A stretch of 21,751 nt of DNA, taken from a virus (taxonomy: Duplodnaviria; Heunggongvirae; Uroviricota; Caudoviricetes). The notes under the pieces were generated by a model. It did not search any database, had not been told where the DNA came from, and saw nothing but the letters and a program-made list of their open reading frames with translations. The position numbers were made by a program, and so were the translations under genes. The stretch lies in IMG/VR virus record IMGVR_UViG_2734482547_000006; one strand, written 5' to 3'. Positions within the stretch are counted from its first letter, which is position 1; every line of letters begins with the position of its first letter. Positions 13,115 through 21,530 of the stretch are shown here, piece by piece.

Positions 13115-14416
13115 TTAAATCCGAAGTGATGTGACTCTTCCGGTCGGTTTGACAATAGGGAATTGCTTAACGATGAAATAACCTCCGGCATCATTCGGGT
13201 GATCATTGCCAGATTTTTTATCAGGCTCCCCCTTATCATCCCAGACCTGTTGCTCCAGAGATTCGGCATATACCGGACAACGCTTCACATTAACTTTATA
13301 GCGACGCTCACCATTGGCATTGCAGAACATTGCATTCATTGAGTTAACGCGATCTTTTACTGGCGGGTTCGAGCTGTTCACCACAACGTTAAAACCTGCC
13401 TGCTTAAGCTGGGCTATATCCGTCGTACTTGCGTTACTTGATTTTCTGGAATCTCCGGAAGCATCTGGATAAATATAAATCTCCCTCACTTTCCGGTAAT
13501 CATGCCCGTCATACAGCCAGAAGCGTTCTTTAATGAGGCGGATCATATCCGGCGTATCGTAGGCATTGATGATTTCAGTTACCGCACATGGAAGCCCCAA
13601 ACGCAGCACATGGACGATTCCCGCCATCTTTCCAACGTTAAAATCCATCCCAATATAAATCGGCTCCCCTGGCTGCTCCACTTCTTCGCAATTATTCAGT
13701 TTCCGGTCAAACTGATGGTAAACAGTACCACTTGTCAGGTTAGTAAACCGTCCTAGAAGATAGGCTTTAATCAGCTCTGGAGGGTATGATTCAAGAAGTG
13801 AAGGAATGTAATCTGCTGGCAGGTTCTTTTCATTATCGAAAGTAGATGCCTGCACCAGACCATACAGTGAGGCCAGCTCTGTTTTTTCACGCACGGCTTT
13901 AACAAACTGCTCGTAGACAAATTTGAATCCTTCCGGCGTGGTTGTAACGTCAATACCGTTGCGAAGTCCATCAATCTTATAACGCATACGCGCAATTATC
14001 TTGCGCCACGCCGTTCTGGCTTTTTCCTTCGGCAAAATGTCCAGTTCATCCACCAGCGCATTACCAATTTTGAAACCGACGATCGTTTGTGGCTTCTCCA
14101 TCGATCTGCAGATAGTGGTTCCCCGATACTGGCGTCCGTAATAAAAGTGAACCTCTTTATTTCCCTCATTAATTTTTACGTTCAATCCCCAGTCAGCAGC
14201 AACTTCTTCCACTGTAGGGTAAAAAATATCGCGAATTTGGGGATACGTTGGCGCAAAATATCCCTGATTTATACCTGGATGCTCCCAAATCCCCTTGCAT
14301 ATGCCGCCACACCCAACCCATGTTTTGCCCGAGCCAAAACCAGCAATATAGGCTTTAAATTTATGGGGCATTGAAAGAAATCGCGCCTGAGGCACATTAA
14401 GCGTCGGAGAGATCAT
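13115..14416 (-). CDS. Terminase large subunit
   Basis: Walker A-like motif GFGSGKT near the N-terminus and an acidic nuclease-type C-terminal half. Start is probably ATG 14414-14416 (MISPTLN...), 8 nt after AGGAG; the track start at 14425 is a GTG lying too close to that RBS. Confidence 0.85.
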   Translation of the reverse strand: MISPTLNVPQARFLSMPHKFKAYIAGFGSGKTWVGCGGICKGIWEHPGINQGYFAPTYPQIRDIFYPTVEEVAADWGLNVKINEGNKEVHFYYGRQYRGTTICRSMEKPQTIVGFKIGNALVDELDILPKEKARTAWRKIIARMRYKIDGLRNGIDVTTTPEGFKFVYEQFVKAVREKTELASLYGLVQASTFDNEKNLPADYIPSLLESYPPELIKAYLLGRFTNLTSGTVYHQFDRKLNNCEEVEQPGEPIYIGMDFNVGKMAGIVHVLRLGLPCAVTEIINAYDTPDMIRLIKERFWLYDGHDYRKVREIYIYPDASGDSRKSSNASTTDIAQLKQAGFNVVVNSSNPPVKDRVNSMNAMFCNANGERRYKVNVKRCPVYAESLEQQVWDDKGEPDKKSGNDHPNDAGGYFIVKQFPIVKPTGRVTSLRI

Positions 14417-15491
14417 CTTCATCACTCCTTAATCTGGCATCAACCACATTAATATTGATCGCCACAGGCTGGGGATGTTCATTATCCTCCACCGTTTCGA
14501 TCTCTTTGCGCAGCTTCTGGTTCTCTATTCTGCGCCGTTCAATTTCCAGTTCCTGTAGCCGCTTATCTGCACATAATGCCCCGCCAGCAGAAAGCAAACG
14601 CAACAATTCACGCCGGGCGGCAGCCTTATCCTCCAGCAGGATCTCAACACCGTATTTTCCGAGCTTTGACCCTGCATATAATTGCCGCGCATCCCCATCA
14701 AGCAGTGTGGTATCAGCCATATAAAGCTGTCCTGTTCCCTCACCGCAGCACTTCGGGCAATCAGGATTGGGTATGGCGTTATCAACAAAGCCGAGGCCTC
14801 CATATTCCGGCTCGGGTTTACCATCTCTGGAGGCCTGTGCCGCAGCCTTATCGAATTCTGCAATATCACGCCACTGGTAGAGATGATTCTCGCCCCAGCA
14901 ATAACGGCAGTTAACACGGCGAAATTGTGCCAACTGATTGGGGTCGGCCTGGACAATGGCCATCAACTGGCTCACCAGTAAATCCAGGTCTGCGGTATAG
15001 CGTTTCTGGTACTGATTGCGGAAGTAGCTGATAGCACGATAAACCCTGGCATTTCTAAGCATACGGCTGGCGTTGCTGTTAGCTGTCGCACCTTGCCCCT
15101 CATAACCAGCCAGTCGGTATGCCTCTGTCGGCTTTTTCCCCTGAGCAACCAACATGGCGAATTTTGCCTGCTGGTCAGAAATACCGAATTCATCGGGGCA
15201 GAACGAAATTTCTTCCGTGTCCCCCTCAATCAGGAGTGCATCGGATACAGCCTTTTTTTTCTGAGATTTTCCGTTCTGCCTTTGCGCAGTCTGCGCAGTT
15301 TTTTTTCGCGCACTTTTTTGCGCAGTTTTGCGCATTTCTTTCTGCGCATTTTTCGGAGTTTTTTTGATGTAACGACGGGCTGTTGCGTAGTTCAGTCCCC
15401 TTGCTTCACACCATGCCACCGGAGATATACCGGAGCGGGTGTATTCAGCAATATACTCCTGCTGCAACGCCCCCCAGTCCGGTCTGCTCAT
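14397..15491 (-). CDS. Terminase small subunit (putative; N-terminal HTH, Lys-rich linker, CxxC...CxxC zinc ribbon)
   Basis: 364 aa immediately upstream of and overlapping the terminase large subunit gene. N-terminus YIAEYTRSGISPVAWCEARGLNYATARRYIKK looks like an HTH; Cys pairs CRYC and CPKCC are present. Large for a small subunit, so assignment rests on position. Confidence 0.6.
   Translation of the reverse strand: MSRPDWGALQQEYIAEYTRSGISPVAWCEARGLNYATARRYIKKTPKNAQKEMRKTAQKSARKKTAQTAQRQNGKSQKKKAVSDALLIEGDTEEISFCPDEFGISDQQAKFAMLVAQGKKPTEAYRLAGYEGQGATANSNASRMLRNARVYRAISYFRNQYQKRYTADLDLLVSQLMAIVQADPNQLAQFRRVNCRYCWGENHLYQWRDIAEFDKAAAQASRDGKPEPEYGGLGFVDNAIPNPDCPKCCGEGTGQLYMADTTLLDGDARQLYAGSKLGKYGVEILLEDKAAARRELLRLLSAGGALCADKRLQELEIERRRIENQKLRKEIETVEDNEHPQPVAININVVDARLRSDEDDLSDA
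15283..15348. repeat. Six copies of (T/C)GCGCA separated by T-runs inside the 5' part of the small terminase gene; candidate pac / TerS recognition site
   Basis: Plus strand reads tTGCGCAgtcTGCGCAgtttttttTCGCGCActtttttTGCGCAgttttGCGCAtttctttcTGCGCAttttt, with copies at about 15283, 15292, 15307, 15319, 15329 and 15343. It encodes the KTAQKSARKKTAQTAQ low-complexity linker. Confidence 0.35.
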
Positions 15492-15494
15492 CAG

Positions 15495-15746
15495 TTAGTC
15501 CTGATTTTTATCCACCCTGAGTAGTTCGCGCAGAGCAAAGGCATCCCCTTTTCTGGCAAGCTTAAACAATGCCGCTCGTAACTCGGCTTCACCTTTCGCT
15601 CTGCCCTTACGGATGGCCGCATAAAAATCTGTCATTGCTTCCCGATTTTCTTTCAGTCGGTTCAGATCAACATCCAGAACGTCAGCGATTTGTTGTGCAG
15701 TCATCCGGCACGCTGCCAGAGACTCGACTTTCGAATACGGAATCAT
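15495..15746 (-). CDS. Small hypothetical protein (83 aa), possibly DNA-binding, immediately upstream of the small terminase gene
   Basis: ATG at 15744-15746 with GGGGG 6 nt upstream. Basic, helical C-terminus. Overlaps the 3' end of the glycosyltransferase gene by 65 nt. Could be a second DNA-recognition component of the terminase. Confidence 0.45.
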   Translation of the reverse strand: MIPYSKVESLAACRMTAQQIADVLDVDLNRLKENREAMTDFYAAIRKGRAKGEAELRAALFKLARKGDAFALRELLRVDKNQD

Positions 15747-16614
15747 TTGTCACCCCCATTGATATGCAGGGTGTCTTCTTCCTGTATTTTTCGTGAAGGA
15801 TTTTTACTGCAGCGTTGTTCCAGGTGACCTGATGGTGAATGCGTTTATGGCTGGCACCCATCAGTGAGATTTTTACGCACGACGGCGAATACATGACGGA
15901 GTAAAAACTTTTAACGTAGGTTCCGGAATCCAGATACAGCTCGGTCATTCCGCCGCTGTTTTTCTGCGTCTGTTTCTGCCCTAACTGGACAGCACCGATC
16001 GTCATAAACAATTCACCACAGCGACCGAGATTCGTGTACGTATTCACATCCTCGTTAATGCGCCCCATGAATGAGAACGGTCGATCAACCGAACAGATAA
16101 AGCTGTTCATTGCCTTGCGTTTCACCCACGAAGCATGGCCGCCATTGTCACCAAGAAAATCCCCGCCCTGCGACATAGCGATGGAAAGCGCGGGTATTGA
16201 TTCGTAATACGCCAGCATTTCAGAAAGGATCGCATCCAGTTTCCTTATCGGGAAATAGGCCTGGTCATAGTTGCGATCCACCCGAAACTGGAACTCGTGA
16301 TAATCATCATCGAGCTGAATGAAGTATTTACACCCGACCAGTTTTGCCAGGTCGAAACAGGCATTACGGGCGTAAAAAATTGAGCGGCGATCACCAAAAT
16401 TATCGGCTTCGTCAAAACGACTGGCAATATCGGCTTTGGAAAATACCAGCACCTGTTCACCAAATTCAGCCATGTACTGATGCCGTGTCTTATCTTCATC
16501 ATCAACAACGATAAAAATTTTCCCGGTATAGCCAGCACGACGCAACGTCCGGTAAGTCAGAACTTTGTCCGGTCGCCCGTGAGTCAGAATAAAGGCGCAA
16601 AAATCATCACGCAT
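15682..16614 (-). CDS. Soluble GT-A fold (GT2-like) glycosyltransferase
   Basis: Contains CAFILTHGRP...KIFIVVDDED and ARNACFDLAKLVGCKYFIQLDDD, which fit the GT2 consensus around the DXD motif. No hydrophobic membrane segments seen. Likely start is ATG 16612-16614 (MRDDF...), preceded by GGGGAGGAGGAGGAAT and overlapping the ParB-like stop by 8 nt. Confidence 0.6.
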   Translation of the reverse strand: MRDDFCAFILTHGRPDKVLTYRTLRRAGYTGKIFIVVDDEDKTRHQYMAEFGEQVLVFSKADIASRFDEADNFGDRRSIFYARNACFDLAKLVGCKYFIQLDDDYHEFQFRVDRNYDQAYFPIRKLDAILSEMLAYYESIPALSIAMSQGGDFLGDNGGHASWVKRKAMNSFICSVDRPFSFMGRINEDVNTYTNLGRCGELFMTIGAVQLGQKQTQKNSGGMTELYLDSGTYVKSFYSVMYSPSCVKISLMGASHKRIHHQVTWNNAAVKILHEKYRKKTPCISMGVTNDSVFESRVSGSVPDDCTTNR

Positions 16615-17398
16615 ATTCCTCCTCCTCCCCGCCATGCATGATCTCCACCATGCGCTGCGTCATTCGGACAAATCCATTTTCAATAGCCTGCTGATAATCA
16701 ATGATCACCAGCGCCGACTCCTCGAAAAGGCACTGAATTTCAGCGGGGGCATGAGCGTAATAGTCCGCAATTCTGCTGAAATTAAACACTGTGTGACGTT
16801 CTGCCGCACACAGGAGGAATTTCTCAATATCAAGATCAAGGGACGCCGAACGTATCCGGCTGATCAGCTCCTGAGTTTTCGTATCGTCGTACAGTTCACT
16901 GATATCCGGTTTACCGCCCGACGGCTCATAAACAGGCGTATCAATTTTCGTCGTATACGGCTCCTCCTCATTTCCTGTACCGGGCAAAACATCCGTCAAC
17001 AGTTCATCAATTTCTGTCGGGATGAAGCCTGTCAGGGAGACATCAAAATCAGCATTGATTAGGTCCGACAGCTCCATCCGCAACAGATCTTCATCCCAGC
17101 CAGCATTCATCGGCAGGCGATTATCTGCCAGGCGGTACGCCTTTTTCTGCTCATCCGTCAGGCCAGACAGAACAATGACCGGAACAGAATCCATTTTGAG
17201 CATTTCAGCCGCCATAACACGACCGTGACCCGCAATAATTTCGCCCTTTTCGTCAATCAGCACCGGATTAGTCCAGCCGAATTGCTTAATACTTTCTACC
17301 AGTTGTGCCACCTGCTCAGTACTGTGCGTCCTGGCATTGTGCGCATACGGTGACAATTCTTGTAATGGGCGATAGACTATCTTTAATTTCTCGCTCAT
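16607..17398 (-). CDS. ParB-like nuclease domain protein (ParB/Srx N-terminal domain, acidic C-terminal half)
   Basis: N-terminal YRPLQELSPYAHNARTHS...PVLIDEKGEIIAGHGRVMAA matches the ParB N-domain pattern including the GxxR box. The C-terminal ~150 aa is strongly acidic. It occupies the position of ynaK in the K-12 Rac prophage map as I recall it. Confidence 0.7.
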   Translation of the reverse strand: MSEKLKIVYRPLQELSPYAHNARTHSTEQVAQLVESIKQFGWTNPVLIDEKGEIIAGHGRVMAAEMLKMDSVPVIVLSGLTDEQKKAYRLADNRLPMNAGWDEDLLRMELSDLINADFDVSLTGFIPTEIDELLTDVLPGTGNEEEPYTTKIDTPVYEPSGGKPDISELYDDTKTQELISRIRSASLDLDIEKFLLCAAERHTVFNFSRIADYYAHAPAEIQCLFEESALVIIDYQQAIENGFVRMTQRMVEIMHGGEEEEYA

Positions 17399-17413: not shown

Positions 17414-17449
17414 GAATAAAACGCACCCCAGCAGCCAGTGCTACTGGGG
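17414..17449 (-). terminator. Intrinsic-terminator-like hairpin downstream of trkG
   Basis: On the minus strand CCCCAGTAG-CACTGG-CTGCTGGGG (9-bp stem, one mismatch) is followed by TGCGTTTTATTC. Confidence 0.4.
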
Positions 17450-17535: not shown

Positions 17536-18993
17536 TTAGGAGCGCCAAAAAAAACCTGAAAACAATATAATAACAGGATAAATTTCAAGGCGACCAAGAA
17601 TCATAGCTATGCACATTAAATATTTTGCAATGTCATTAAGCACTCCGAATGACGATGCAGTAGCCCCAAAACCTAATCCCATATTATTAATACATGCAGC
17701 CACTGTTGCAAATGATGTAAGAAAATCATATCCCATACCATTTAACACCAGTATAAAAAACACCGTGAAGAGAGTATAAAGAAAAAAGAAACTCCATACA
17801 GACCTCATTACACGATCTGTAACTATCTTCCCTCCTACATTTACACTTAACAACGCTCTGGGATGAGAAAGTTGATTTATCTCGTGTTTGCTTTGTTTGA
17901 AAAGTATAAGAAATCGAAGTGACTTAATTCCACCACAGGTTGAACCGATACATCCCCCAAAGAAACTTGACAACAGCAAAAACACTATCGTGTGCGTGGG
18001 CCAGTTTGCATAATCCTGCGTAGCTAAACCATTATCAGTGAGCATGGAGCTGGCAAGAAAAAACGAATGAATAAAACTTCCATGCAAGTCATACATACCT
18101 ATATGCCAGACCTGGAAAGAGGTAACAATGATCACCCCTAAGGCTATTAACAGAAAGAAACGAAGTTCAATATCTCTGATTAAAGGTTTTATCGTTTTTC
18201 TGCTAATAACAATATACCAAAGAGTGAAGTTGAAAGCCGATAGCAGGGAAAAAGAACCAGCCACCAGCTCAACCAAATAGTTATTAAAATATCCGATACT
18301 CTCGCTATGAGTTGAGAAACCACCAAGCGAAACTGTGGAAATCCCGTGACAAATAGCATCAAACAAAGGCATTCCTGCAAGTCTATAACAGACAATACAA
18401 GCAATACCTAATAAAGAATAAGTTATCCACAGTGTCCGTGACGTATCGGCCAGGCGGGGAGTGAGTTTGTCATCCTTAAATGGCCCCGGCATTTCTGACT
18501 GATAAAGCTTTGCACCACCAATACCCAATAATGGCAATACTGCAACCGCCAGAACAATAACTCCTAAACCACCTATAAAATTTAACTGTGACCGATAGTA
18601 CAAATATGCCCGAGGTAATGAACTAACATCATCAATTACAGTTGCTCCTGTTGTTGTTATTCCAGAAACCCCTTCAAACAGAGCATCAATGAACGTTAAA
18701 TTAAGTTCTGAGTCAATCCATAAAGGGAATGCACTAATAACAGAAAACAAAATCCAAAACATTACAATTATAATAAACCCATCACGAGTACGTAATTGAA
18801 TGCCAGATTTCTTAGTTGTATACCACGCTCCGCCACCAATGCAAAAAAATATAACGAAAGTTATAAAGAAAACGAACAGGCTTTTTTCTTTATAAAACAA
18901 TGCTACAACCATTGGTGGCAACATTGAAAGACTATAGAGCCAAACCAGGAACCCACACATATGAGTAACAACTCTTACATGAGATGTATTCAT
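17536..18993 (-). CDS. trkG: Potassium uptake protein TrkG (TrkH/TrkG family membrane transporter), Rac-prophage-type moron
   Basis: Multi-pass hydrophobic protein; from MNTSHVRVVTHMCGFLVWLYS... it is 485 aa, matching the size of E. coli TrkG as recalled. AT-rich codon usage contrasts with the flanking phage genes. Sits right after Rz/Rz1, as in the Rac prophage. Confidence 0.9.
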   Translation of the reverse strand: MNTSHVRVVTHMCGFLVWLYSLSMLPPMVVALFYKEKSLFVFFITFVIFFCIGGGAWYTTKKSGIQLRTRDGFIIIVMFWILFSVISAFPLWIDSELNLTFIDALFEGVSGITTTGATVIDDVSSLPRAYLYYRSQLNFIGGLGVIVLAVAVLPLLGIGGAKLYQSEMPGPFKDDKLTPRLADTSRTLWITYSLLGIACIVCYRLAGMPLFDAICHGISTVSLGGFSTHSESIGYFNNYLVELVAGSFSLLSAFNFTLWYIVISRKTIKPLIRDIELRFFLLIALGVIIVTSFQVWHIGMYDLHGSFIHSFFLASSMLTDNGLATQDYANWPTHTIVFLLLSSFFGGCIGSTCGGIKSLRFLILFKQSKHEINQLSHPRALLSVNVGGKIVTDRVMRSVWSFFFLYTLFTVFFILVLNGMGYDFLTSFATVAACINNMGLGFGATASSFGVLNDIAKYLMCIAMILGRLEIYPVIILFSGFFWRS

Positions 18994-19130
18994 ATCTAAA
19001 TATTCTTTCAATTATAACCACCTTGCTGCAATATTATGATTATACTGTATAAAATTTAACTCCTCTTAGATCTTACTTCACTGTTCCTTATGAAACAATC
19101 ATCAAAATGAATCATATTGTAGTTAAGATT

Positions 19131-20555: not shown

Positions 20556-20951
20556 CTAACCTCGCATGTCAAAGCCAGATTTCTGAAAATCTCTGTAGAC
20601 TTCCGGATTGTTGAAGGCCGGAAATTTGGCTTTATGAGCTGCGGACTTTATCGCTTCGCAATAGGCTTTATCACCGTTACTGGTAGATATTTTTAACGCC
20701 GTGCCATCCTGAGAGAATTCCATATGCAACCTGCATTTTTTCCCTTTCCAGTTATGCGGCTCATCAAGTTTGGCATTAATTGCAGCTCTGATTCCCCGCG
20801 CTTGCGCCCCCCATTCATCCTGATCATCCCAGCGTCCTGAACTGCAACTACCTGTAGCAGTAGTTTTGTGGCAATCTGAAGGGTGTAAAGGTGTGCATCC
20901 CGCAACAAAACCGACCCAAAAAGTCAACATAACGATTTTCTTTAATCCCAC
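20556..20951 (-). CDS. Lipoprotein with TolA C-terminal (domain III)-like domain, diverged paralog
   Basis: GTG start with GAGGAG 6 nt upstream. Signal peptide MGLKKIVMLTFWVGFVAGC with lipobox VAG-C and Thr at +2. C-terminus GKKCRLHMEFSQDGTALKIS..GDKAYCEAIKSAAHKAKFPAF..EVYRDFQ aligns with the TolA C-terminal segment GKTCTLRIKLAPDGMLL....GDPALCQAALAAAKLAKIP....VYEVFK. Confidence 0.7.
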   Translation of the reverse strand: MGLKKIVMLTFWVGFVAGCTPLHPSDCHKTTATGSCSSGRWDDQDEWGAQARGIRAAINAKLDEPHNWKGKKCRLHMEFSQDGTALKISTSNGDKAYCEAIKSAAHKAKFPAFNNPEVYRDFQKSGFDMRG

Positions 20952-21101: not shown

Positions 21102-21530
21102 TCAGGGTTTAAAATCCAGCACCCCATTTTGAAATACTTTATATACTTCCGGCGAAGGGGGGGCAGGTATATCAGCATTCTTTATCGCATTCATCGCTTC
21201 ACGACATAAATCGAGGTCTCCACTTTCTCTTTTAACCTCCAGTAGAAGGCCATTCGGGGCCATATGCATTCTCAGTGTACACTCTTTTCCTGAATACTTA
21301 CTCGCATCCCCGAACTGTTTTTCGATGGCGCTCTTGATTTGATGGGCATACAGACGGATATCCTCACTAACATCAGAAGTACGTTCAGATGAACTCACAT
21401 ACTGTGTCTCTATTGCTTTATCGGAGTAATATGATGTACGGTCATGATAATTTGTCGATACAGCATCAGTGCACCCGATAATAATCCCACTAATAATCAA
21501 CGTAAGAATTGATGCGCTACGAAAACCCAT
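21102..21530 (-). CDS. Lipoprotein with TolA C-terminal (domain III)-like domain
   Basis: Signal peptide MGFRSASILTLIISGIIIGC with lipobox IIG-C and Thr at +2. C-terminal ~85 aa (YAHQIKSAIEKQFGDASKYSGKECTLRMHMAPNGLLLEVKRESGDLDLCREAMNAIKNADIPAPPSPEVYKVFQNGVLDFKP) closely parallels the recalled E. coli TolA C-terminus (...YAGQIKSAIESKFYDASSYAGKTCTLRIKLAPDGMLLDIKPEGGDPALCQAALAAAKLAKIPKPPSQAVYEVFKNAPLDFKP). RBS GAGGAAAA precedes the ATG. Confidence 0.75.
   Translation of the reverse strand: MGFRSASILTLIISGIIIGCTDAVSTNYHDRTSYYSDKAIETQYVSSSERTSDVSEDIRLYAHQIKSAIEKQFGDASKYSGKECTLRMHMAPNGLLLEVKRESGDLDLCREAMNAIKNADIPAPPSPEVYKVFQNGVLDFKP

Follow-up and report, generated by a model that had tools for sequence, protein, structure and literature searches.

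A ParB-like protein and a TAGT-family glycosyltransferase encoded by overlapping genes in Rac-like prophages and many other viruses: a candidate DNA-directed glycosylation module

Introduction

TAGT, the family of TET-associated glycosyltransferases, reportedly named by Iyer et al. in 2013, brings together the alpha-glucosyltransferases of phages T2 and T6, the GT-A enzymes associated with the phage thymine dioxygenases called 5mYOX and, more distantly, the base-J glucosyltransferase (JGT) of trypanosomes and GREB1. Glycosylation of phage DNA is understood only where a hydroxymethylated base is made first, by a deoxynucleoside monophosphate (dNMP) hydroxymethylase or by a TET-like dioxygenase, and the acceptors known for the family are 5-hydroxymethylcytosine (5hmC), 5-hydroxymethyluracil (5hmU) and glucosyl-5hmC. 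A metagenome survey (bioRxiv 10.1101/2023.12.21.572611), in which the motif set R...DDD...ED is described for DNA-acting phage GT-A enzymes and for JGT, reports that about 65% of the contigs carrying glycosyltransferases contain neither 5mYOX nor ThyS, and leaves these 'orphan' contigs unexplained. A subclass of the 5mYOX enzymes requires a ParB-like activator on double-stranded DNA, a protein that lacks a DNA-binding domain (O'Toole et al., PNAS 2026, PMC13229309) and whose conserved nucleoside triphosphate (NTP)-motif residues seemed dispensable on mutagenesis (PMC13229309); in addition, a passage of PMC8256090 cites Iyer et al. 2013 as proposing that ParB directs modification enzymes during packaging. 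Here we analyse a stretch of 21,751 nucleotides of tailed phage DNA (IMG/VR record IMGVR_UViG_2734482547_000006; hereafter the window), in which a gene for a ParB-like protein overlaps a gene for a TAGT-family glycosyltransferase (GT) directly ahead of the packaging genes. With a probability that we put at about one half, the two proteins constitute a late-expressed, two-subunit, DNA-directed glycosylation module, the acceptor of which we leave unassigned. No paper describing this pair, or the C-terminal domain (CTD) of the ParB-like partner, was found in a literature search.

Results

By sequence and by fold the enzyme is a TAGT-family GT-A glycosyltransferase. It matches the Pfam family PF20691 (TAGT) with an E-value of 6e-35 and 121.5 bits, against a cut-off of 27.5, over profile positions 4-205 of 205, and phrog_842 with an E-value of 1.5e-103; the latter family carries the label 'beta-glucosyl-HMC-alpha-glucosyltransferase', HMC standing for hydroxymethylcytosine, and the same label is found in RefSeq phages. 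The beta-glucosyl-HMC alpha-glucosyltransferase of T6 is also a member of PF20691 (E 1e-8, 35.8 bits, above the cut-off), an assignment found as well in PMC13390438. A profile comparison between the alignment of our GT family (alignment A1) and the T6 enzyme returned no direct alignment, and the link to T6 is drawn from the shared Pfam membership together with a match in fold to the homologous enzyme annotated in Klebsiella phage PKO111. An earlier sequence-only reading of the window had pointed to a GT-A signature, and both elements of it are present, VVDDED at residues 36-41 and YARN...YFIQLDDDY at residues 81-105; R83, D102-D104 and E188-D189 are invariant in alignment A1, and the residue following ED is a valine and not the Y/F of the published motif ED(Y/F). 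In the AlphaFold2 (AF2) model the predicted local distance difference test (pLDDT) exceeds 85 over most of residues 1-150 and is poor beyond about residue 186. When this model was compared with the PDB by Foldseek all matches were GT-A enzymes, and in BFVD the top matches were TAGT proteins (TM-score 0.71-0.73), with a weaker match to a T-even-type beta-glucosyl-HMC alpha-glucosyltransferase. The GT-A assignment of the sequence-only reading is upheld, and the description of the enzyme as 'GT2-like' turned out to be imprecise, given the match to PF20691 and the lack of any Glycos_transf_2 match in the Pfam search. The protein is soluble as had been claimed, the Kyte-Doolittle mean over 19 residues peaking at 1.08 with no membrane segment, and mildly basic (pI 8.0). 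An identity as a GT2/GtrB-type O-antigen modifier, already doubted in the sequence-only reading, is rejected on the same two grounds, no GT2 match and no membrane segment, and the neighbours are lysis genes, trkG and terminase. The window GT is 100% identical to family representative P0001; the family amounts to 1502 clusters at 50% identity with E-values up to 1e-3, and to 709 with E-values up to 1e-30. Members of this clade have a conserved C-terminal extension past the Pfam model, GTYVKSFY...RIHH..W, and the E. coli proteins end in a specific acidic tail of about 22 amino acids that has no counterpart in relatives and overlaps the start of the small open reading frame (ORF) that follows.

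The partner protein consists of a ParB/Srx N-terminal domain, a linker motif and the CTD; with a pI of 4.5 and a net charge of about -25 it is strongly acidic. The ParB-like character assigned to it earlier is upheld by a match to Pfam ParB_N (E 8.9e-7), accompanied by one to phrog_620 (E 5e-90), and by an AF2 model that resembles the Noc, ParB, KorB and Srx folds. Boxes I-III of the N-domain are recognisable as SIxxFGWxxP, GHGR and LADN. Its closest relatives are the N-terminal modules of phage DNA methyltransferases, as seen in the matches to phrog_498 (E 8.6e-51) and to the PADLOC model MTase_II (PDLC03229; E 1.7e-38); it is 40-53% identical to phage methylase N-termini, and among 520 matching phage records only 24 extend beyond the N-domain. 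Conservation was counted over 56 diverse partners. In box II, G57 is present in all 56 and R60 in 45, and from this natural loss of the arginine the NTP-motif residues seem to be dispensable in these proteins. The linker motif and the CTD are conserved far better than the ParB domain: Y148 is found in 56/56 partners and both P155 and Y157 in 55/56, within a stretch of low pLDDT (40-46) whose motif is kept even where the ParB domain is missing, and in the CTD each of F194, L195, R201, F205, A211, L230, I232, D234, A238 and G242 is found in all 56. Searches with the CTD against Pfam and against PDB sequences gave chance-level matches only, and the domain has no Pfam family and no relative of solved structure there. 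A profile of the CTD retrieved 6141 proteins, which fall into two architectures, ParB_N plus CTD (about 240-260 aa) and CTD-only (about 128-148 aa). An identity as a partition ParB was rejected: the match to TIGR00180 reaches 38.1 bits against a cut-off of 58.45 and covers the N-domain only, and there is no parA in the window, no helix-turn-helix (HTH) and no parS-like repeat.

As the sequence-only reading had stated, the stop of the ParB-like gene and the start of the GT gene overlap behind an AGGAGG sequence. The GT start, ATG (16614-16612) CGT GA, runs into the ParB stop TGA (16609-16607), which gives an 8-nt overlap (ATGCGTGA), and GGCGGGGAGGAGGAGGAAT, which as read from the sequence contains AGGAGG, lies immediately 5' of the GT start. 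The purine run of this Shine-Dalgarno sequence doubles as codons for the acidic ParB tail GGEEEEYA. The start at 16614 is supported by the N-terminus MR(D/N)DFC in 25/25 homologues of alignment A1 and by the same call, of 310 aa, in the Prokaryotic Genome Annotation Pipeline (PGAP); the start at 16635, which would give the longest ORF, was rejected on these grounds.

The coupling of the two genes was found to be conserved in two collections of GT-centred loci, 86 from IMG/VR, in which the GT is 44-58% identical to a Lactobacillus phage homologue, and 76 from GTDB, with one genome per species. A partner gene lies directly upstream of the GT gene in 78/86 IMG/VR loci, with an overlap of 4-23 nt, most often 11 nt, in 74 of the 78; in GTDB the corresponding figures are 72/76 and 67 of the 72. 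The overlap seen in the window is therefore no product of chance. Conversely, a TAGT gene is found within about 1 kb of the CTD in all 78 loci of a third, CTD-centred sample, directly downstream in 72 of them. Hosts in the GTDB sample belong to Bacteroidota, Bacillota, Pseudomonadota, Planctomycetota, Acidobacteriota, Chlorobiota and the candidate phyla radiation (CPR) bacteria, and include one archaeon; isolated viruses carrying the pair are the Lactobacillus phages phi jlb1, c5, Ld17 and LL-Ku, the Nocardia phage NTR1, Porphyromonas phages, the haloarchaeal virus HHTV-2 and the Vibrio phage pv27. The pairing is thus kept in viruses that infect archaea and many phyla of bacteria, and the CTD, not the ParB domain, is the obligate GT-associated part of the partner. 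In one locus (L118:6287-7855) a 522-aa ORF joins a ParB-like N-domain, the CTD and TAGT in frame, with the internal MRDDF start kept and the box II arginine lost (AGNGVYEQA). This fusion, the only one seen, may reflect loss of a stop codon or a sequencing artefact. Five long TAGT representatives (P0383, P0386, P0387, P0412, P0420), considered as further ParB or CTD fusions on account of N-terminal extensions of 180-265 aa, were rejected, the extensions being neither, and since long TAGT proteins carry other extensions and L118 is the sole case, such fusions are rare. From the obligate co-occurrence and the one fusion we infer that the GT probably depends on its partner.

The two architectures of the partner differ in genomic position. 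Full ParB plus CTD partners occupy the junction of replication or late-regulatory genes with packaging genes: a gene for the terminase large subunit (TerL) lies at most 4 kb downstream in 56/65 IMG/VR and 38/51 GTDB loci, none adjoins a polymerase gene, and the terminase families downstream differ among loci. CTD-only partners are often part of the replication module in large phages, of 100-137 kb and 191 kb, in the typical order DnaB, primase, PolA, clamp-like gene, CTD, one to three TAGT genes, dUTPase, RecA and clamp loader; seven of the 21 CTD-only loci adjoin PolA or clamp genes, six lie within 4 kb upstream of TerL and eight do neither. TAGT genes occur in tandem, two to five paralogues per locus, as where one CTD-only gene is followed by five (L165:5249-10218) or three (L170:10432-12982) of them, and NAD-dependent epimerase genes adjoin them. 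TAGT domains are also fused to class I S-adenosylmethionine-dependent methyltransferase or to sulfotransferase domains, or duplicated within one chain (P0367, P0374, P0399, P0406, P0393). Together, the tandem genes, epimerases and fusions point to elaborate glycans. A gene inserted between the ParB-like and GT genes in five loci was considered as a possible dioxygenase and proved to be a second TAGT paralogue. In two further loci (L095:4930-6105 and L123:4988-6274) a gene for a ParB_N-N6_N4 DNA methyltransferase fusion lies directly upstream of the ParB plus CTD/TAGT pair, so that two ParB-domain modification units stand in tandem.

Two observations on other modification genes were made in these contexts. 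Outside the window, about 7-10 kb upstream of the pair in the Rac-like prophage of E. coli AR_0077 (L001:28121-31620), an island contains genes for an ATP-binding protein (HATPase_c_3), a 'putative O-methyltransferase' (Methyltransf_35, E 2e-89) and a C5 DNA cytosine methyltransferase. In addition to the pair, one metagenomic phage has two glycosyltransferase genes of the GT2 family (PF00535) after its major capsid gene (L086:15837-16894), and these could serve a separate virion- or envelope-directed glycosylation.

The window region is 99.8% identical to Rac-like prophages of E. coli and is present in part or whole in 1607/5426 complete E. coli genomes (about 30%), with at least 80% of the region in 866. 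Here the pair stands at the head of the packaging module, before the genes for the terminase small subunit (TerS) and TerL, which agrees with the packaging/head-module position proposed earlier, and the upstream limit of the module is given by the hairpin that separates the trkG moron from the ParB-like gene (Table 1). The G+C content of the pair is 0.48-0.49, against the lower values listed for trkG. RefSeq names the ParB-like gene of Rac-like prophages ynaK, after a truncated remnant in strain K-12, of which the gene in the window is the full-length form. Many E. coli genomes have the ParB-like gene annotated only as a short ynaK pseudogene fragment, or split by an IS3 insertion, next to an intact GT gene (e.g. 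L001:21745-22002, matches H6-H12); in the window both genes are intact.

Table 1. Positions of the pair, its domains and the neighbouring genes in the window
Feature	Position	Strand	Remarks
Lysis cassette: P21-type holin, lysozyme, Rz		-	First in minus-strand gene order
trkG	17536-19011	-	AT-rich moron, G+C 0.36-0.41
Terminator-like hairpin	17426..17449	-	10-bp stem with 7 G-C pairs, then T-run
ParB-like partner gene	16607..17398	-	263 aa; matches to ParB_N and phrog_620
ParB/Srx N-terminal nucleotide-binding-type domain	16994..17398	-	Residues 1 to ~135; box II A-G57-H-G-R60
Linker motif YTxKIxxPxYEP	16922..16957	-	Y148-T-x-K-I-x-x-P155-x-Y157-E-P159; predicted disordered
C-terminal helical domain (CTD)	16634..16903	-	Residues ~166-255; unannotated
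Coupling junction	16607..16632	-	GGAGGAGGAGG, Shine-Dalgarno within acidic-tail codons of ParB, and ATGCGTGA, start/stop overlap
TAGT-family GT-A glycosyltransferase gene	15682..16614	-	310 aa; matches to PF20691 and phrog_842
Small basic ORF	15495..15746	-	83 aa (69 aa from 15704); match to phrog_309
TerS (Terminase_2)	14397..15491	-	After small ORF
TerL (Terminase_6N/6C)	13115..14425	-	After TerS
P22-type head genes, lambda-type tail genes		-	Last in minus-strand gene order

Discussion

The described systems nearest to the pair are the ParB-dependent 5mYOX systems and the fusions of ParB to methyltransferases; here the client is a glycosyltransferase and the adaptor domain is new. As in the former, a ParB-fold protein made of an N-terminal nucleotide-binding domain and a C-terminal domain, without a DNA-binding domain, is encoded beside a post-replicative DNA-modifying enzyme (here a presumed one), often near terminase; the likeness drawn here to the 5mYOX ParBs (ParB176) is one of architecture and placement. 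In contrast to those systems, the client is a glycosyltransferase and not a dioxygenase, and the ParB domain can be missing altogether, as in the CTD-only partners. With the methyltransferase fusions (phrog_498, PDLC03229) the partner shares a homologous N-terminal portion of about 140 residues; there ParB is covalently joined to the enzyme, whereas here ParB is attached to the adaptor-like CTD, and the enzyme forms a chain of its own whose translation is coupled, L118 being the exception. The ParB/Srx fold is also common to the partition ParB of ParABS systems, Noc and KorB, from which this protein differs in having no HTH and in its strong acidity. With regard to the TAGT family, the GT shares the Pfam family, the GT-A fold, the R...DDD...ED motifs, the solubility and the phage origin of its relatives, but neither TET/JBP, nor the pair of C5-methyltransferase and TET, nor a dNMP hydroxymethylase is found beside it; the association with TET/JBP or a hydroxymethylase, which is the source of the family's name and not of sequence membership, is thus absent here. 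The T6 gene lies between uvsX and gene 42 and has no CTD partner beside it, whereas the present clade has an obligate one in an overlapping gene.

On this basis we hypothesize the following course of events for a DNA-directed module. The pair would be transcribed only with the late operon, since the hairpin that separates it from trkG would leave it within reach of antiterminated late transcription alone, which would read through, and the two proteins would be made in coupled fashion from their overlapping genes. They would work on phage DNA that has been replicated, either ahead of packaging or while it proceeds. The CTD and the linker motif may bind the basic GT and activate or position it, perhaps by ordering its C-terminal third, which is conserved but poorly predicted. 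In temperate and small phages the ParB N-domain, by the precedent of the ParB-like activator of phage thymine dioxygenases, would link the enzyme with the DNA of the phage or with the stage of packaging. The expected outcome would be phage DNA that is decorated with sugar and withstands the nucleases of the host. Three findings are counted in favour of DNA as the target: membership in PF20691 is common to the DNA enzyme of T6, the ParB N-domain is homologous to the N-domains of phage DNA methyltransferases, and CTD-only plus TAGT relatives reside inside replication modules. Further points on this side are the invariant R...DDD...ED motif set, the methyltransferase fusions next to the pair in L095 and L123, the position of ParB plus CTD partners ahead of TerL and the signs of elaborate glycans. 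Of the two targets offered by the sequence-only reading, phage DNA and virion proteins, DNA is accordingly the better supported.

That proposal is weakened by the fact that no source of 5hmC or 5hmU came to light, and several results weigh against DNA as the target. Neither a TET/JBP dioxygenase nor a thymidylate-synthase-type hydroxymethylase nor any other base-activating enzyme was found in the window, in the annotation covering an entire Rac-like prophage or in the contexts for which precomputed Pfam matches were available. The complete 38-kb phage phi jlb1, which carries the pair, has no ORF large enough for either enzyme, all its unassigned early ORFs being shorter than 120 aa. The partner protein has no HTH or other Pfam domain beyond ParB_N and no recognisable DNA-binding domain, it is strongly acidic, about 20% of its relatives have lost the box II arginine, and no convincing parS-like inverted repeats or palindromes surround the pair. 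Furthermore, a TAGT domain is known to act on a protein, as GREB1 O-GlcNAcylates ER-alpha (PMC7968844). When some 1500 neighbouring ORFs of the 86 loci were clustered in search of a third partner gene, only terminase, portal and replication families recurred; this clustering covers families present in at least five of the 86 loci and used no TET or ThyS profile, so that rarer cases are possible.

As the base-activating enzymes are absent, the acceptors known for the TAGT family are unavailable in such small phages, and the acceptor cannot be phage-made 5hmC or 5hmU. We consider, as a tentative and rather doubtful extension, glycosylation without a hydroxymethyl-pyrimidine precursor, in which the sugar would be placed directly on canonical DNA (base, backbone or end) of temperate phages infecting bacteria and archaea, or would form a protein-primed glycan on the invariant Tyr/Thr motif of the partner, tied to replication or packaging. 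The conventional solution, a glycosyltransferase acting on 5hmC, 5hmU or glucosyl-5hmC made by another enzyme, has on its side the name of phrog_842, the TET-associated name of the Pfam family and the presence of the T6 enzyme in it; moreover, the large lytic phages with CTD-only partners were inspected over about 10 kb on each side, and a hydroxymethylase may lie elsewhere in their genomes. Nevertheless, this prophage and the other small temperate phages have no TET/JBP or thymidylate-synthase-like gene, and the PHROG family owes its name to a transfer from remote T-even members, with which, in the case of T6, the profile of alignment A1 did not align. To our knowledge E. coli DNA itself contains neither 5hmC nor 5hmU. 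All in all, we judge a conventional acceptor to be very improbable.

A protein substrate, though unlikely in our view, accounts for several of these observations. The target would be either a product of the adjacent late genes, a protein of packaging or of the virion, or else the partner, with YTxKIxxPxYEP as acceptor and tandem glycosyltransferases extending a protein-primed glycan. The GREB1 precedent, the missing hydroxymethyl-pyrimidine source and the acidic partner without a DNA-binding domain all suit this explanation, as do the invariant Y148 and the near-invariant P155 and Y157 in a stretch that is predicted with low confidence, and in most loci the pair directly precedes terminase and head genes. 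Protein-acting GT-A enzymes, namely glycogenin, SunS and ColGalT1, were among the fold matches of the GT model, although at a TM-score of about 0.4 they reflect generic GT-A similarity. Against it, the CTD-only plus TAGT units in replication modules are distant from structural genes, which disfavours the virion proteins put forward by the sequence-only reading, and the ParB N-domain belongs to a kind known from fusions with DNA methyltransferases. Downstream of the constant pair, the families of terminase, portal and capsid proteins change, so that no conserved virion acceptor is apparent.

Two further explanations were considered. The pair might serve defence or counter-defence, with a host small molecule, an immune signal or the DNA of a superinfecting phage as target; a preprint from NEB (New England Biolabs) suggests that prophage glycosyltransferases might modify invading genomes, about 30% of complete E. 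coli genomes carry the pair, and no acceptor has been assigned. The GT has no PADLOC match, however, its position in a late operon behind a terminator-like hairpin and its phage-like G+C content make expression in the lysogen unlikely, and lytic phages carry the CTD-only plus TAGT unit in their replication modules, which renders a defensive role improbable. Alternatively, the ParB-like protein could be a packaging-associated nuclease or terminase accessory, as the sequence-only reading had allowed, and the GT a functionally separate neighbour. Some ParB/Srx proteins cleave DNA. The older Pfam name 'ParB-like nuclease' and the nearness to TerS and TerL agree with such a role, and Nocardia phage NTR1, where TerS is not annotated, has TerL immediately after the pair; we found nothing specific in its favour. 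The ParB-like and GT genes overlap and almost always co-occur, what the partner never loses and conserves best is the CTD, unnoticed in the sequence-only reading, and not the ParB domain, CTD-only partners also lie away from terminases, and the pair precedes several unrelated terminase families. We consider this explanation extremely improbable, and return to the two-subunit DNA-directed module as the preferred one.

If DNA is indeed the target, the modification would affect how restriction, CRISPR and type IV systems see the DNA of temperate phages, and sequencing of such phages may be affected as well; the glycosyltransferase would also be a second client enzyme for ParB-like proteins acting as activators of DNA modification. 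The analysis also shows that the 'orphan' contigs of the metagenome survey belong together as one coherent system of two subunits, in which the partner domain is defined, though unannotated, and the genes take up either of two stereotyped positions; the enzyme is from the same family, and the hydroxymethylation step is not seen. Precursor-free glycosylation, should it prove true, would add a new class to the known viral modifications, one that about 30% of the complete E. coli genomes would carry; the pair is directly testable in this host.

Other features of the window

The small basic protein reported to follow the GT does so, with a pI of 9.25, and PGAP prefers its 69-aa version starting at 15704. 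No Pfam family matches it, and its match among the PHROGs is to the middle of phrog_309 (E 8.3e-23), the family named 'terminase small subunit', even though a complete TerS gene comes next; it appears to be related to a fragment of TerS, and its membership in the module is uncertain. Within the 5' part of the TerS gene (window 15290-15353) a 13-nt direct repeat, TCTGCGCAGTTTT on the plus strand, occurs in three copies spaced by 24-27 nt, which could be pac or TerS-binding repeats or simply a repeated coding stretch rich in Lys, Ala and Gln. Two minus-strand ORFs that shortly precede the holin gene (window 20556-20951, 131 aa, and 21102-21530, 142 aa) match the TolA C-terminal domain PF06519, with E-values of 1.3e-14 and 2.4e-23, respectively, and may encode TolA mimics that affect the entry of colicins or phages.

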